DNA from: an uncultured cyanobacterium
GTDB taxonomy: Bacteria > Cyanobacteriota > Cyanobacteriia > Cyanobacteriales > CAWCAG01
Length of the DNA stretch: 64,000 nt
Direction: 5' to 3'
Assembly: GCA_963803805.1 (NCBI GenBank)
Contig: CAWDOD010000003.1
Coordinates: forward strand, 320,001-384,000
Shown: piece after piece, positions 492 through 55,669 of the stretch
How the letters are laid out: every line of letters begins with the position of its first letter
Numbering within the stretch: the stretch's first letter is position 1
Program-made: the position numbers and the translations under genes
The notes under the pieces: model-generated
Databases searched by the model: none
The model's input: only the letters and a program-made list of their open reading frames with translations
Told to the model about the DNA's origin: nothing

Positions 492-3158
492 GTGAATTTT
501 TCTGCAAAAAACTCAGCCCTTGATCTCAAAACACTATTTCCTTTTGAACTAGATGATTTTCAAAAAAGAGCGATCGCCGCTCTCAATGACAATAAATCTG
601 TGGTAGTTTGCGCCCCCACTGGTTCTGGGAAAACTTTGATTGGAGAGTATGCAATTTATCGTGCTTTGTATAGCGGTAAGCGAGTTCTATACACAACTCC
701 CCTGAAAGCACTTTCTAATCAAAAGTTAAGGGACTTTAGGAAACAATTTGGGGAGAGGGAAGTTGGTTTATTAACTGGGGATGTCTCTAGCAACAGGGAA
801 GCCTCGGTTTTGGTGATGACCACAGAAATTTTCCGTAATATGCTCTACGGAACCCCCATTGGCCAAGTTGGTACTTCCTTAGAAGATGTCGAAGCGGTGG
901 TTTTGGATGAGTGCCACTATATGAATGACCGCCAACGAGGTACAGTTTGGGAAGAGTCGATTATTTATTGTCCTCCAGAAATTCAATTAGTGGCTCTGTC
1001 AGCTACCATTGCTAATGGAGCAGAATTAACAGAATGGATTGCTCAAGTTCATGGCCCCACAGAACTAATCAACTCCGATTATCGCCCCGTACCCCTGAAA
1101 TTTTATTTTAGTAGTCAAAAGGGCTTATTTGATCTGTTAGATAAGCAACAAAAGTCTTTAAATCCTCGCCTCAAATCGAAAAGAAAAGGAGGGCAAAAGC
1201 GCTTAAGAAGAGAAGACTGTCCTGGTGTATTTCAAACAGTATCTCAGCTTTACAAACGGGAGATGCTCCCAGCAATTTACTTTATTTTTAGCCGTCGAGG
1301 TTGCGATCGCTCCGTAGAAGATTTTAGTGAGGTAACTTTGGTTAACCCTGAAGAAGCCTCTCGTCTCAAACTTCGCATTGATGAGTTTCTAAAGCAAAAT
1401 CCTGATGCGGGGAGAAAAGGTCAAGTGGGAGCATTATATCGAGGTGTTGCTGCCCACCATGCAGGCATCCTTCCCGCTTGGAAAGGGTTAGTAGAAGAAT
1501 TGTTCCAAGCTGGCTTAGTTAAGGTTGTCTTCGCCACAGAAACCCTAGCTGCGGGGATTAATATGCCTGCCCGCACCACGGTAATTTCTTCTATCTCCAA
1601 GCGTACTGATCGCGGTCATCGCCTCTTAACAGCTTCGGAATTTCTCCAAATGGCTGGTCGGGCAGGACGTAGGGGCATGGATACTGTAGGTTACGTGGTA
1701 ACTTGTCAAACTCCTTTTGAAGGAGCTAAAGAATCAGCCTACTTAGCAACAAGAAAACCAGACCCCTTGGTAAGTCAGTTTACCCCTACCTATGGCATGG
1801 TTTTGAATTTACTTCAAACCCATAGTATTAGCCAGGTACAAAACCTCCTAGAAAGAAGTTTTGCTCAATATATTGCCACCTTAAGGTTAACCCCCCAACA
1901 AAAGGCGATCGCTGATTTAGCTACAGAATTAGCCAGGTTGGATGTGGAGTTAGCCCCCATAGAAGTTAATTTAATTAGCAGCTACGAAAAACTGAAAGGA
2001 AGACTTAAAGAAGAACGTCGCCTCCTCAAAACCCTTAAGCAACAAGCAGAAGCAGAACGTTTAAAAGATATTGCCTCAATTGCCACAGGATTAGAACCAG
2101 GACAAATAATTTATTTAAAAGGTAAACACCTCAAAGTAAATAAGCCTGTAATCGCCATTTTAATCGCTAAAGCTATCGGAGGAGGTCAAGCCCCTTATCT
2201 TGTCTGTTTAGGTAGAGATAACCACTGGTATATAGTCAGTAACATTGATGTTATCGCCATAGATGAACAATCCCTACCTTCTTCTCAAATAGAATGGTTA
2301 ATTCCCCCAGACAATTTGGGCATCAAATTAGGCAAATCTTGTCCTGGAGACGAAGTTAGTGCCGAAGTCGCCCAACTACTGCCTTCAAAAGCGGAACCAA
2401 AAATTCCTGAAGTACCAGAAGTGTTTGCTCAGCAGCAAAAAATGGCTGCTACCCAAGCCCAAATTGACAATCATACCCTTAGTCAATGGGGCCGTCCGGG
2501 AACCATCGTTAAGCGCCACAAACGCCGCCTTAGCCTCCAAGAAGAAATATCTGACCGACAAAGTAAATACCGAGAACATCAAACCCATCATTGGCAGGAG
2601 TTCCTTAACTTAATTGATGTTCTCCAAGCTTTCGATGCTCTTAAAGGTTACAATCCTACTCCCCTGGGTAAGGCAGCAGCAGCTATTAGAGGAGATAATG
2701 AGTTATGGTTGGCTCTAGCCCTTAGATCAGGAGAATTAGAACAACTAGAACCTCAACATCTAGCGGCCGCAGCTTGTGCCTTAATCAGCGAACCACCCCG
2801 CCCAGATAGTTGGGTAAAATATACTCCTCCCCAACAAGTCATTGAAGTTGTGGGTAACTTGCGTCCCTTGGGACAGGAACTGATCCAACTTCAATATCGT
2901 TATAAAGTTGCTCTCCCGGTTTGGCGAGAATATAAACTAATTGGCATTGTCGAACAATGGGCGTTAGGCATTGAATGGGTTGAACTTTGCGATGGTACAA
3001 GTCTTGATGAAGGAGATATTGTCAGAATCTTACGGCGAACCGTCGATTTTCTCTCGCAAATTCCTCATATTCCGGACATATCCGGAGATTTAAAGAAGAA
3101 TGCCCGTAGAGCAATCCAATTAATGGAGAGATTTCCCGTGTCAGAAATTGTTGATTAA
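492..3158 (+). CDS. Ski2/HelY-like DEAD/DEAH-box RNA helicase
   Basis: APTGSGKT Walker A, DECH, SAT, QMAGRAGRRG motif VI and a C-terminal DSHCT-like region (DEGDIVRILRR). Confidence 0.93.
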   Translation: MNFSAKNSALDLKTLFPFELDDFQKRAIAALNDNKSVVVCAPTGSGKTLIGEYAIYRALYSGKRVLYTTPLKALSNQKLRDFRKQFGEREVGLLTGDVSSNREASVLVMTTEIFRNMLYGTPIGQVGTSLEDVEAVVLDECHYMNDRQRGTVWEESIIYCPPEIQLVALSATIANGAELTEWIAQVHGPTELINSDYRPVPLKFYFSSQKGLFDLLDKQQKSLNPRLKSKRKGGQKRLRREDCPGVFQTVSQLYKREMLPAIYFIFSRRGCDRSVEDFSEVTLVNPEEASRLKLRIDEFLKQNPDAGRKGQVGALYRGVAAHHAGILPAWKGLVEELFQAGLVKVVFATETLAAGINMPARTTVISSISKRTDRGHRLLTASEFLQMAGRAGRRGMDTVGYVVTCQTPFEGAKESAYLATRKPDPLVSQFTPTYGMVLNLLQTHSISQVQNLLERSFAQYIATLRLTPQQKAIADLATELARLDVELAPIEVNLISSYEKLKGRLKEERRLLKTLKQQAEAERLKDIASIATGLEPGQIIYLKGKHLKVNKPVIAILIAKAIGGGQAPYLVCLGRDNHWYIVSNIDVIAIDEQSLPSSQIEWLIPPDNLGIKLGKSCPGDEVSAEVAQLLPSKAEPKIPEVPEVFAQQQKMAATQAQIDNHTLSQWGRPGTIVKRHKRRLSLQEEISDRQSKYREHQTHHWQEFLNLIDVLQAFDALKGYNPTPLGKAAAAIRGDNELWLALALRSGELEQLEPQHLAAAACALISEPPRPDSWVKYTPPQQVIEVVGNLRPLGQELIQLQYRYKVALPVWREYKLIGIVEQWALGIEWVELCDGTSLDEGDIVRILRRTVDFLSQIPHIPDISGDLKKNARRAIQLMERFPVSEIVD
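570..577. repeat. HIP1 octamer GCGATCGC (one example of many copies in the window)
   Basis: GCGATCGC recurs throughout coding regions; characteristic of cyanobacteria. Confidence 0.9.
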
Positions 3159-51295: not shown

Positions 51296-52786
51296 ATGAT
51301 TCCTAACTCATCCTTTCCCTTTAAGGCCAACTCTGCTGACAATTTTGGTCAAAGCGAAAAAAGACCAGATAAACCAGAAGAAGCCTGTGGTGTTTTTGGC
51401 ATTTATGCCCCCGAACGGGACGTAGCCAAACTAACTTATTTTGGACTATATGCCCTGCAACACCGAGGTCAAGAATCCGCTGGAATAGCAACTTTTACTG
51501 AAGATAGAACCCTAATTCATAAAGATATGGGTTTGGTGTCCCAAGTGTTTAATGAGTCTATTTTAAGTACTATGCCGGGAAATCTAGCGGTGGGTCACAC
51601 CCGCTATTCCACAACAGGTTCTAGTTTAGCCTCAAATGCTCAGCCAGTAGTTGTAGAAACTAAAAAAGGGATGTTAGCCCTGGCCCACAATGGCAACTTA
51701 GTTAATGCAGCCCAATTAAAAGAAAAACTGAGTAGGAGAAATTGTAACTTCGCTAGTACCACAGACTCAGAAATGATTGCGATCGCGATCGCCGAAGAAG
51801 TAGACCGTGGTAAAGATTGGTTAGAATCAGCTATTAGTGCTTTTCAAATGTGTGAAGGAGCCTACAGTCTAACAATTGGTACTCCTGAAGGTTTAATGGG
51901 GGTTAGAGATCCCCATGGTATTCGTCCTTTAGTAATTGGTACATTAGGCAATAATCCTTGTCGCTACGTTCTTGCTTCAGAAACCTGTGGCTTAGATATT
52001 ATTGGGGCAGAATATCTCCGGGATGTAGAACCTGGGGAAGTAGTTTGGATTACTGAAGAAGGTATGGCTTCTTTCCACTGGGGACAAAAACCCCAAAGAA
52101 AACTCTGTATCTTTGAAATGATTTACTTCGCAAGGCCAGATAGCCTCGTTAACGAAGAAACTCTCTATAGTTACCGGATGCGTATCGGTAGACAATTAGC
52201 TCAAGAATCTCCTGTCGAAGCTGATATTGTTATCCCAGTTCCCGATTCTGGAGTTCCTGCGGCCATTGGTTATTCCCAGGAATCAGGTGTTTCTTTTGCT
52301 GAAGGATTAATCAAAAATCGCTACGTAGGCCGTACATTCATCCAGCCTACCCAAGAAATGAGAGAAGCTGGCATCCGCATGAAACTCAATCCCCTCAAAG
52401 ACGTTTTAGTGGGCAAGCGGGTAATTATTGTTGATGATTCTATTGTTCGTGGTACAACCAGCAAAAAAATTGTTAAAGCATTGCGCGAAGCTGGGGCTAA
52501 GGAAGTACATATGCGTATTTCTTCCCCCCCTGTTACCCATCCTTGCTTCTATGGTATAGATACCGATAGTCAAGACCAACTGATTGCGGCTACTAAGTCT
52601 GTAGCAGAAATAGAAGCACAAATTGGTGTAGATTCTTTAGCGTATTTAAGTTGGGAAGGTATGCTAAAAGCCACTGGAGAAGACCCCCAAAGCTTCTGTA
52701 CTGCTTGCTTTAATGGTGACTATCCCATCTCTATTCCTAACCAAGTGAAGCGTTCTAAATTGATTTTAGAGAAGCTGAAAGTGTAG
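51296..52786 (+). CDS. purF: Amidophosphoribosyltransferase
   Basis: EACGVFG, LQHRGQE and VDDSIVRGTT motifs. Confidence 0.98.
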   Translation: MIPNSSFPFKANSADNFGQSEKRPDKPEEACGVFGIYAPERDVAKLTYFGLYALQHRGQESAGIATFTEDRTLIHKDMGLVSQVFNESILSTMPGNLAVGHTRYSTTGSSLASNAQPVVVETKKGMLALAHNGNLVNAAQLKEKLSRRNCNFASTTDSEMIAIAIAEEVDRGKDWLESAISAFQMCEGAYSLTIGTPEGLMGVRDPHGIRPLVIGTLGNNPCRYVLASETCGLDIIGAEYLRDVEPGEVVWITEEGMASFHWGQKPQRKLCIFEMIYFARPDSLVNEETLYSYRMRIGRQLAQESPVEADIVIPVPDSGVPAAIGYSQESGVSFAEGLIKNRYVGRTFIQPTQEMREAGIRMKLNPLKDVLVGKRVIIVDDSIVRGTTSKKIVKALREAGAKEVHMRISSPPVTHPCFYGIDTDSQDQLIAATKSVAEIEAQIGVDSLAYLSWEGMLKATGEDPQSFCTACFNGDYPISIPNQVKRSKLILEKLKV

Positions 52787-52799
52787 TAGTGAATTGATT

Positions 52800-53030
52800 T
52801 TAGATTTGTTCACTTTTTGATGGCTGGTAATAGGCCAAAAAAGAAGGAAGAGAGTTAAGTTCTCTTCCTTCTTTTGTCTGGTTTTGTTGATTGTCTGAAC
52901 GCGCTTTTAACTTTTTCCGTAACATTTGCTGTCGCTTTTTCAGTTGGCGCTTTCTGGCTGCACCGCCTTTACCTTTATCATTGCGCCCTTGGCGGCGAGG
53001 TGATTCCCAGCTTTTAAGTCGCTCTACCAC
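52800..53030 (-). CDS. Small basic protein, candidate ArfA/BrfA-like ribosome rescue factor
   Basis: GTG start with a GAGGA SD; 18 K/R in the first 44 aa; KGKGG motif; intrinsic terminator inside the ORF. Confidence 0.65.
   Translation of the reverse strand: MVERLKSWESPRRQGRNDKGKGGAARKRQLKKRQQMLRKKLKARSDNQQNQTKEGRELNSLPSFLAYYQPSKSEQI
52837..52875. terminator. Bidirectional intrinsic terminator inside the 52800-53030 ORF
   Basis: Perfect 15-bp stem 52839-52853 / 52861-52875; U6 tract on the minus strand and U4 on the plus strand (after purF). Confidence 0.85.
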
Positions 53031-53092
53031 TATTATTTTTCCTCATACTTGCCTAGTACTATTTGTAGCATAATAATACTATTCAAACAAGT

Positions 53093-55669
53093 TTACTCTG
53101 GCGCTGTTATGGGAACTGGCGCTGGGGCTGGGGCTGGAACTGGTTTCGATTGTTTTTCAATTGTAGGAGGTGGAGCGGGGGCTGGGGCTGGAGCGGGGGC
53201 TGGGGCTGGAACTGGGGCTGGAACTGGGGCTGGAGCCGGCGCTGGTCTTGGTGCGGGTGCAGGTGCTGGAGCTGGCGCGGGTCTTGGTGCGGGTGCAGGG
53301 GCTGGAGCTGGTCTTGGTGCGGGTGCTGGAGCTGGAGCCGGCGCTGGTCTTGGTGCGGGTGCAGGGGCTGGAGCCGGTGCGGGTCTTGAACTACCTTGGT
53401 TGCTCCTACTATTACCGCTATTTCCTTGGCTAGGCTGAGAGCGACGTTTAGGTTGGGAATTGGAATTAGAACCAGAATTAGAAGTAGAGCGCCTACGGCT
53501 ATTACTAGAACCAGAGCTAGAACTTTTACGGCTTCTGCTTTGACTGCTTTTTTTGTAATACTGTTTTTTGGGCTTAATGGGTTTAGCTTTAATCGTACCT
53601 TCGCGGCCTTCCAATTTATCAGGAAGCTTAGGGAAATCTGCTTTAGGTAAATCTTCCACGGCTTCCCCCATAAATCTACTCCAGGTGGCTGCTGCAGTGC
53701 CGCTACTGGCGTAAGTAGATTTATTATCATCATTACCAAGCCAGACCCCAGCAACTAATTGAGGTATGTAGCCAATAAACCAAAGATCCTTTTCTTCATC
53801 AGAGGTTCCTGTTTTCCCAGCTACAGGTCGGTCTATTTGGGCTGGTGAAGCTGTACCATAAGTTACGACCCCTTGGAGCATCCAAGTCATGATAGCGGCG
53901 GTATCTTTGTCTAAAGCCCGTTCTTTTTTGAAGTCAGCTTTGTAAATCACCTCACCATTTTTATCAAGAATGCGATTAATACCACGGGGCGGAACGTGCA
54001 TTCCTTTGTTGGCTAGGGTTCCGTAGGCACTGGTTAATTCGAGGAGATTAACTTCAGAAGAACCTAGTGCCAAAGAATAGGTTGGTTTTAGTTTAGACTT
54101 GATACCCATTTTTTTGGCAATTTCGATGGTTGGCTCCCAACCCACATCAACCAAGGTGCGAACAGCCACAACATTAAGGGAATAGGCGAGAGCATCCTTG
54201 ATAGATACATAACTACCGCGATACTTATCATCGTAATTTTCAGGTTGGTAGCCAGCGACAACATAGGGTTGATCTAGAACACCTTTATAAGGAGAAAAAC
54301 CTGCGGCGATCGCCGTGGAATAAACAAAGGTTTTGAAGGTGGAACCGGGCTGTCTTTGGGCTTGGGTAACGCGATTAAATTGATTTTCGTCAAAGTCTTT
54401 CCCTCCCACCAAAGCCCTGATTTTCCCATTGCGGGGGTCAATGGCTACTAAAGCCGCTTGATCAAAACGTTGACTCTTACCTTGATTTTCTAGGGTTTTA
54501 GTAACGGTTTCTTCCGCTATTTGTTGCCATTCTGGGTTAAGAGTAGTTTCTACGGTTAAGCCCCCAACTTCGATTTGTTCTGAGGAGACGTATTTAGGCA
54601 ATTCTTTTTGGATATAACTGGTGAAGTAAGGGTATTTCCGATTGAGGCGTTTTGGTTCACTGTAGTCTGTTCTTAAACGAGAAGCGATGGCTTTTTCGGC
54701 TTCAGCTTCGGTAATAAAACCCTCTTTTTCCATTTGCCGCAAGACAACATTACGGCGCTCTTGGGCCAACTTTTTATTCTCTAAAGGAGAATAAGCTGTG
54801 GGTGCTGGGGCTAAAGCAGCGATGGTTGCTGCTTCAGGGAGGGTAACTTCGTCAATTTCTTTACTAAAATAAACCCAAGCAGCATCCCCAACACCATAGG
54901 CTCCCGAACCTAAATAAACTAGATTCAGGTAACGTTCCATAATTGTCCCTTTCTCGAATCTGCCTTCGATTTTATTCGCTAAGCGCATCTCTCGTAGCTT
55001 GCGCCAAATTTTCTGTTCTTGGTTGAGAAAGACAATACGGGCTAGTTGTTGGGTAATAGTACTTGCTCCTTGGACAACATCCCCAGATTGAAAGTTAGAA
55101 AAAGCCGCTCTCAAAACACCTTGAAAATCAACGCCATGATGTTTTTCAAAACGCCGATCTTCACTAGCGATAAAAGCTTGAACTACATCTTGAGGAATTT
55201 CTTCAATATCTAACTGATCATGGGTTGTGGGGCCAACTTCTTGCAATACACTACCGTCAGAAGCAGTGATTTTCAAGGTTCCTTCACGGGCATAGGTTAA
55301 AACATCATCAACAGAAGCAGGCAAACTTTTCTCAATTTTCCACCAACCCCAGCCCAAAAAGATTAAACCCGTAGTAAAACCGACACCAGCCCCTAAAGCT
55401 AACCAAAAACGGGGGCGATTTTGCCAGGGATGATCTCCAGTAAAGGGGCGAACTACTTTTGTTTTTAGTTCAGCAGCTTTGGTTTTAAATTTTTGGAAGT
55501 AATCTTTAACTGGTGTTTCTCCCTGCCTATTTGTTTCTGCTGCTAATTCTTGTTCCTCAGTCTTTGACGGGACATCACCAGATACGGCTTTCGGATCTGT
55601 GGATGTCGAGTTAGAAGGTTGCTTACTCGACATATTTTTTAATCTGAACCTAGAAATGAACTTTTGCAC
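53093..55669 (-). CDS. Class A penicillin-binding protein (PBP1A family) with Ser- and Pro/Ala-rich tail
   Basis: EDRRF.HHG, GASTITQQL, SxxK (GSTFK), SLN and KTG motifs. Confidence 0.93.
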   Translation of the reverse strand: MQKFISRFRLKNMSSKQPSNSTSTDPKAVSGDVPSKTEEQELAAETNRQGETPVKDYFQKFKTKAAELKTKVVRPFTGDHPWQNRPRFWLALGAGVGFTTGLIFLGWGWWKIEKSLPASVDDVLTYAREGTLKITASDGSVLQEVGPTTHDQLDIEEIPQDVVQAFIASEDRRFEKHHGVDFQGVLRAAFSNFQSGDVVQGASTITQQLARIVFLNQEQKIWRKLREMRLANKIEGRFEKGTIMERYLNLVYLGSGAYGVGDAAWVYFSKEIDEVTLPEAATIAALAPAPTAYSPLENKKLAQERRNVVLRQMEKEGFITEAEAEKAIASRLRTDYSEPKRLNRKYPYFTSYIQKELPKYVSSEQIEVGGLTVETTLNPEWQQIAEETVTKTLENQGKSQRFDQAALVAIDPRNGKIRALVGGKDFDENQFNRVTQAQRQPGSTFKTFVYSTAIAAGFSPYKGVLDQPYVVAGYQPENYDDKYRGSYVSIKDALAYSLNVVAVRTLVDVGWEPTIEIAKKMGIKSKLKPTYSLALGSSEVNLLELTSAYGTLANKGMHVPPRGINRILDKNGEVIYKADFKKERALDKDTAAIMTWMLQGVVTYGTASPAQIDRPVAGKTGTSDEEKDLWFIGYIPQLVAGVWLGNDDNKSTYASSGTAAATWSRFMGEAVEDLPKADFPKLPDKLEGREGTIKAKPIKPKKQYYKKSSQSRSRKSSSSGSSNSRRRSTSNSGSNSNSQPKRRSQPSQGNSGNSRSNQGSSRPAPAPAPAPAPRPAPAPAPAPAPRPAPAPAPAPRPAPAPAPAPAPRPAPAPAPVPAPVPAPAPAPAPAPAPPPTIEKQSKPVPAPAPAPVPITAPE
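53100..53385 (-). repeat. (PA)n / RPAPAPAPAP coding tandem repeat
   Basis: Repeated gctggtcttggtgcgggtgc units on the plus strand. Confidence 0.9.

Follow-up and report, generated by a model that had tools for sequence, protein, structure and literature searches.

What does a bacterial gene encode when a transcription terminator sits inside its own reading frame, and what would its message look like? This question is raised by a 76-codon open reading frame (ORF) on the minus strand, 52800..53030, of a 64,000-nucleotide (nt) stretch of DNA from an uncultured cyanobacterium (assembly GCA_963803805.1, contig CAWDOD010000003.1, positions 320,001 to 384,000 of the forward strand), which we analysed as a whole and refer to as the window. 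An original prediction, made from the letters of the window, had proposed that this ORF specifies a ribosome rescue factor of the kind of Escherichia coli ArfA and Bacillus subtilis BrfA, made from a self-truncating message that lacks a stop codon. Relatives in several hundred species point to a conserved gene, with its terminator kept in frame in all 81 loci compared, very probably designed for a stop-less message, with ribosome rescue as the likelier role of its product.

A conserved small basic gene of cyanobacteria

The ORF opens with GTG, runs for 76 amino acids (aa), and ends with TAA at 52800-52802. Its translation contains RRQGRNDKGKGGAARKR, and a GAGGA Shine-Dalgarno-like motif, read from the sequence, lies 9 nt 5′ of the GTG at 53040-53044 (minus strand). 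Neither Pfam nor NCBIfam holds a family that matches the 76-aa protein. A search of 5.8 billion proteins returned 424 homologues at E <= 0.01, every named one of which is cyanobacterial, and a scan of one genome per species gave at least 597 pattern matches, with at least 535 species genomes confirmed. Searched with a profile, 1.84 billion cluster representatives (50% identity) yielded 455 clusters at E <= 0.001, including 390 at E <= 1e-10; the best 150 of the 455 are 66-172 aa long and include no long fused forms. In nearly all of these 150 the match starts among the first few residues, and in about 16 it starts further in, at residues 5-68. An ESM Atlas search with a stored homologue also found cyanobacterial clusters only. 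The N-termini of the homologues, of the form M-x-[EQ]-R-L-K, are consistent with the GTG start.

The near-invariant columns of the family alignments form an N-terminal module, residues 1-42 (52905..53030, minus strand), within which residues 4-42 are invariant or almost so and follow the consensus RLKxWESPRRQGRNDKGKGGxARxRQLKKxxQMLRKKLK. Behind it runs a variable Q/N/K-rich linker of about residues 43-51 (52876..52904, minus strand), unconserved in its columns and varying in length, which prolongs the predicted helix described below. For comparative analysis we combined the window with 80 loci kept from the species-genome scan, 81 in total. Across these loci the codon-position entropy of the conserved stretch was 0.448 at first, 0.219 at second, and 1.201 at third positions; the last being the most variable, this substitution pattern indicates that the stretch is translated. 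On the same comparative grounds 52800..53030 is a genuine coding gene, one of a cyanobacterial family so far undescribed, and the reading of a 76-aa basic ORF in the original prediction was right.

Among 401 genomes sampled across the phylum the family occurs in 117, almost wholly in the window's own order, two families of which carry it in 25/26 and 41/46 genomes. In a family of small genomes (1.6-3.0 Mb) the gene was present in 0/33, and ArfB in all. The window's genome (5.3 Mb, 97.4% complete) has a single copy. A copy in locus L108 (minus strand) lacks the invariant RLKxWESPR start, its frame reading ..MERLYKGRNDKGRGG.., yet retains both helix and in-frame hairpin, and may be a copy in decay or one altered at its N-terminus.

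A terminator hairpin inside the reading frame

On the minus strand, 15 consecutive pairs join a 5′ arm at 52861-52875 to a 3′ arm at 52839-52853 across a loop at 52854-52860, and a 101-nt RNA of this strand folds with -27.1 kcal/mol (z = -5.09), a stability reached by 0/200 shuffles. The hairpin (52839..52875), with a purine-only 5′ arm and a pyrimidine-only 3′ arm, encodes ..KEGRELNSLPS..; translated in the frame of the ORF the segment reads ...KEGRELNSLPSF.., as had been claimed. The original prediction had further described a 15-bp hairpin plus U6, and here one part held and the other did not: the 15 pairs are present, but the outer four are A-U pairs whose U residues are the first four of the U6 tract (52837..52842), so that four U had been counted twice. 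The element is an 11-bp G/C-containing stem followed by U6, or a 15-bp stem followed by U2, and not both.

Intrinsic termination typically occurs 7-9 nt beyond the core stem. With this distance assumed, the RNA would end at about 52834-52837, within codons 64-65 (...SLPSFL) and 32-35 nt ahead of the TAA, a predicted position that agrees with the earlier estimate of an end near 52837, about 35 nt before the stop codon. The ORF tail beyond the terminator (..AYYQPSKSEQI and the stop codon, 52800..52836, minus strand) is predicted to be absent from the main transcript. No Rho domain was found in the window's genome, and intrinsic terminators are therefore the expected route to end transcripts there. 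An Rfam scan of 52600-53300 gave no match at gathering score, only microRNA-like matches to the bare hairpin.

The opposite strand folds too (z = -4.51), and a consensus scan calls a plus-strand terminator at 52839-52875, followed by GTCTGGTTTT, 53 nt after the stop codon of the convergent neighbour (51296..52786, plus strand), for which the label purF is taken from the original prediction, no family search having been made. The same hairpin thus probably also serves purF termination from the opposite side.

The terminator is kept in frame across relatives

Within the reading frame, 81/81 loci have a hairpin with a T-run behind it, one of them (L050) accepted only under a relaxed T-run criterion. 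The free energy (dG) of the hairpin has a median of -16.8 and extremes of -11.6 and -22.9; measured from the invariant Trp codon, the hairpin ends 156-243 nt further on (median 170). Random windows drawn from the same loci and searched in the same way reached dG <= -11.6 in 25/234 cases, as compared with 81/81 for the family, and dG <= -15 in 8/234, as compared with 65/81. Among 20 more distant members the layout was recovered in 17 by the first motif and in 2 more by a relaxed motif (19/20), and was not found in L104.

The reading frame passes through this element without interruption. An in-frame stop codon at or before the hairpin occurs in 0/81 loci, and over linker and hairpin together the stops number 0 of 1786 codons in frame 0, as against 19 in frame +1 and 170 in frame +2. 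The first in-frame stop follows 2-281 nt past the hairpin with a median of 43, the medians of the other two frames being 34 and 44.5 (one locus sequence ends before any post-hairpin stop), and the protein tails encoded beyond the hairpin are unalignable and variable in length. Conservation extends to the frame across the hairpin, where G55, P62, and F64 each reach 90% or more and the T-run is read as Phe. The stems vary in sequence between lineages yet remain paired, the 5′ arm always purine-only and the 3′ arm always pyrimidine-only, a composition in which no stop codon is possible in any frame; we read it as apparent selection for a terminator able to sit safely within a reading frame. Such an all-purine/all-pyrimidine terminator inside a reading frame is a usable signature to search for more genes of this kind. 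When 46 of the 75 distinct hairpin stretches were aligned with MAFFT, RNAalifold recovered only 6 pairs, at -0.67 kcal/mol, because stems and loops of differing length fell out of register, and hairpin conservation was judged from per-sequence folds instead of the consensus fold.

Could the hairpin instead serve the neighbours, as a bidirectional terminator or a leader-peptide attenuator, with the ORF running through it incidentally? The 53-nt distance from the purF stop would suit this, as would the T-rich run on the plus strand and the opposite orientation of the nearest downstream ORF in 45/75 loci. In 30/75 loci, however, the nearest downstream ORF lies on the same strand, 200-1000 nt away and of unrelated families, and the 43 of 75 downstream ORFs that were family-scanned belong to many unrelated families. 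Moreover, the distance of the hairpin is fixed relative to the coding module and not to the neighbour, and a module of 42 conserved residues does not resemble a leader peptide. On these comparative data the gene layout is independent of its neighbours, and the idea of a hairpin that belongs to them, already largely refuted by the comparison, strikes us as highly improbable. The alternative named in the original prediction, mere overlap of the ORF with the purF terminator, was rejected as a sufficient explanation, the hairpin being kept with co-directional and diverse downstream genes. What that prediction had envisaged of homologues is what they display, namely an in-ORF terminator (81/81 and 19/20 distant members) beside diverse neighbours, a tail that varies freely, and no case among the 81 of a stop ahead of the hairpin. 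We consider it very probable that the gene is built for expression from a stop-less mRNA.

Protein features and comparison with known rescue factors

The protein is small, highly basic, and without GGQ, and would therefore be unable to hydrolyse peptidyl-tRNA alone. AlphaFold2, run with 79 sequences, gave a mean predicted local distance difference test score (pLDDT) of 69.8, with residues 1-22 extended and of low confidence, a single long basic helix over residues 23-53 (pLDDT 96 over residues 31-40), and a disordered C-terminal end. A KGKGG motif at residues 19-23 shows little or no variation within the family.

This motif recalls KGKGS in E. coli ArfA (PF03889; E. coli and other Proteobacteria), which is likewise small and basic and has a hairpin within its ORF ahead of the stop codon. 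The motif sits at a different place in the two proteins, however, and the sequences could not be related: PF03889 has no match to the window protein at E <= 10 nor to 79 family members at E <= 1, BLASTP against E. coli ArfA gave E = 2.8, and hhalign of the family against E. coli K-12 ArfA gave a probability of 2.3% over 15 columns, pairing RQGRNDKGKGGAARK with RVEKNKKGKGSYMRK, which is not significant. The family profile searched against all PDB chains at E <= 10 found Nop14 only, in a copy of the database whose inclusion of the BrfA-ribosome chain was unchecked. Judged by these searches the KGKG likeness is a resemblance of motif and not evidence of shared descent. The genes differ as well, as RNase III cleaves the hairpin of arfA and the present one bears a U-tract like an intrinsic terminator. 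Expression of arfA is gated in the manner proposed here, an in-ORF hairpin leaving its mRNA stop-less (PMC10107115). The E. coli K-12 record (L116:6432-6485) also places yrdG, annotated as an 'arfA-derived small regulatory RNA', across the 3′ end of arfA.

The closer parallel in design is BrfA (YqkK) of Bacillus subtilis. PMC6881298 describes a terminator within codons 63-71 of brfA, a product that lacks the C-terminal region and is SsrA-tagged, its accumulation only in the absence of SmpB, its dependence on release factor 2 (RF2), and the species-specificity of release-factor-dependent factors in general. Both proteins are small, basic, and without GGQ; both genes have an intrinsic terminator within the 3′ part of the ORF, known from sequence in the present case; both genomes encode transfer-messenger RNA (tmRNA) as well as SmpB; and in both the tail beyond the terminator is dispensable, brfA having 72 codons for a product of 62 aa (PMC6881298) and the present gene 76 codons for a predicted product of about 64-65 aa. 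They differ in phylum, no sequence similarity was found between them, and the rescue activity of the present protein is putative. The term 'ArfA/BrfA-like' in the original prediction thus appears apt for the design of the gene and not for homology, as neither PF03889 nor the PDB profile search nor hhalign lends support to a sequence relationship.

Two further factors offer partial parallels. The C-terminal helix of SmpB occupies the empty mRNA channel, and the basic helix predicted here could fill it likewise, in the manner of the C-terminal helix of ArfB (PMC7641280). Unlike ArfB, the present protein lacks GGQ and the RF-1 domain (PF00472 has no match in the window protein), the mRNA of ArfB is normal, and ArfB was not found in the window's genome. 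ArfT of Francisella tularensis is a lineage-restricted small factor that recruits RF1 or RF2 (PMC6299226), and it shows that such factors arise independently; the present candidate rescue factor, also small and lineage-restricted, is likened to it by description alone.

Rescue systems in the genome and a proposed mechanism

The window's genome encodes a one-piece tmRNA with the tag peptide ANNIVPFARKTTAVAVA, SmpB, and RqcH, together with exactly two genes with an RF-1 domain, which are RF1 (L081:859-1968) and RF2 (L082:901-1929). For ArfB nothing exceeded the cut-off of NF006718 in this genome, and ArfA (PF03889) had no match in it, the E. coli control being positive. The RF2 frame begins with TTG and measures 342 aa, and its homologues about 333-420 aa, mostly 359-373. 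The gene prfB usually has a programmed +1 frameshift close to its start, with which this frame would agree.

From the gene layout, which comparison establishes, we infer a transcript 3′ end, tagging, ribosome binding, and release-factor dependence as follows. RNA polymerase would stop at the intrinsic terminator within the reading frame, the message would end at about codon 64-65 without a stop codon, and each translating ribosome would stall at the mRNA 3′ end. With trans-translation working, tmRNA-SmpB would resolve the stall and add ANNIVPFARKTTAVAVA, and the product would be degraded; with trans-translation saturated or lost, untagged product would build up. It would then bind stalled ribosomes with an empty mRNA channel, most likely with the basic helix (about residues 23-53) in the channel and the RLKxWESPRRxGRNDKGKGG segment at the decoding centre, and would, like ArfA and BrfA, enable RF2 or RF1 to hydrolyse peptidyl-tRNA where no stop codon is present. 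The first step draws on the comparison of sequences and the later steps on the scheme known for brfA and arfA. On balance we find it likely that the gene yields a self-truncating stop-less mRNA whose product of about 64-65 aa would be tagged by tmRNA and would act, when untagged, as a release-factor-dependent rescue factor.

Several observations weigh against this proposal, some of them bearing on the stop-less message and others on the role of the protein. As to the message, 3/80 loci have a complete stop codon no more than 8 nt from the hairpin end and 5/80 have one no more than 10 nt from it, and in 3/17 distant members the stop is inside the U-tract; some members, with a stop near the U-tract, may terminate translation normally, and such members could be variants under different control. 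RNA libraries were searched with a Microcystis-like homologue (L094:1250-1950) and not with the window. Part of that stretch occurs in 16 RNA runs, and the four examined consist of assembled contigs, which are unable to show RNA ends or levels. Contigs cover the L094 gene in 4/4 runs, they bridge its terminator in runs X1 and X8, and the contig of run X2 begins within the gene and continues beyond it, so that either read-through transcripts or DNA must be present in those libraries.

These same observations, the bridging contigs and the few members with a stop inside or right after the U-tract, are what would be expected of an ordinary small basic protein, for example one that binds ribosomes or nucleic acids, whose loose C-terminus overlaps a terminator, whose stop codon is reached on longer transcripts, and in which tmRNA plays no regulatory part. 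A protein of this kind should have a defined end upstream of the terminator. Instead, none of the 81 loci has a stop at or before the hairpin, the later stop comes at a chance position behind unrelated tails of 2-281 nt, and the frame across the hairpin is conserved at G55, P62, and F64. We regard an ordinary protein as improbable.

As to the role of the protein, homology to ArfA or BrfA went undetected in our profile and sequence comparisons. The channel-probing tail of ArfA is C-terminal, unlike the conserved module here, which is N-terminal and followed by a variable terminator-proximal region. In BrfA, too, the basic region that probes the channel is C-terminal (PMC6881298). RqcH in the window's genome means that a back-up route already exists, and the family and ArfB show no complementary distribution: in the 401 genomes, 58 have both, 59 the family only, 66 ArfB only, and 218 neither. 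Mutual exclusion of the two had been expected and is refuted by the 58/117 carriers that have both.

A stop-less, tmRNA-gated gene might accordingly encode something other than a recruiter of release factors, with another role on the ribosome or on RNA, for example a channel plug that parks or hibernates ribosomes, a factor for handover to RqcH or MutS2, or an RNA chaperone or regulator. All the architectural evidence fits such a protein equally, RqcH is present here and in 161/162 surveyed cyanobacteria (PMC11633108), the co-occurrence with ArfB means that a second release route is not obviously needed, and no similarity to the RF2-contacting parts of ArfA or BrfA is detectable. However, both characterised genes of this design encode release-factor-dependent rescue factors, the size, charge, and KGKG-type motif of the protein match the rescue class, and E. 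coli also carries ArfA and ArfB together. A different role is thus possible but rather doubtful. One version of it, which we put forward tentatively and hold to be unlikely, is a new kind of effector that monitors the capacity for trans-translation. Such an effector would appear only when tmRNA is overrun, would occupy the vacant channel and decoding centre, and would route ribosomes to RqcH or MutS2 or into a parked state, the all-purine/all-pyrimidine terminator acting as a 'stop-proof' device under selection to keep every frame free of stops ahead of the RNA end.

Release-factor-dependent rescue remains the role we favour, and it would have consequences beyond this locus. To our knowledge, arfA and brfA are the only genes established as being switched on by the loss of their own stop codon. 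A third, sequence-unrelated family with a stop-loss switch, found throughout an entire cyanobacterial order, would mean that this regulatory logic was invented repeatedly. It would also supply the type of release-factor back-up reported absent from cyanobacteria: a 2024 survey of 162 cyanobacterial genomes lists smpB in 161, ssrA in 155, arfB in 90, arfA in 0, rqcH in 161, and mutS2 in 150 (PMC11633108). About half of the sampled carriers, the window's genome included, also lack ArfB. A literature search, with supplementary tables outside its scope, found neither a cyanobacterial release-factor-dependent rescue factor nor this protein described. If the proposal is true, the gene offers a directly testable candidate in organisms in which the quality control of translation bears on photosynthesis and on the related chloroplast system.

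Neighbouring genes and further observations

In the window, a same-strand ORF of 858 aa (53093..55669, minus strand) lies upstream and ends 62 nt before the small gene. From its translation alone, with no family search, it is a putative class A penicillin-binding protein; its 3′ end (53093-53400, minus strand) encodes a Ser/Arg-rich stretch and then a long (PAPAPAPAPR)n-like Pro-Ala repeat tail.

In the relatives, the closest upstream ORF with 120 codons or more encodes Peptidase_M48 in 30/74 loci and members of about 20 other families in the remainder. This HtpX-like gene lies upstream on the same strand in L001, L002, L006, L007, L011, and others (about 2048-2914, plus strand), and it often ends exactly 86 nt before the small gene, which is not so in the window. 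The adjacency may be a remnant of ancestral synteny or of co-transcription.

The members with a stop codon within or just past the U-tract are L016, L025, L050, L047, and L019, and, in addition, L101, L102, and L109. Just upstream of the L094 homologue, the segment L094:1274-1391 has very high contig depth with many loose ends in all four RNA libraries, and looks like a dispersed repeat.

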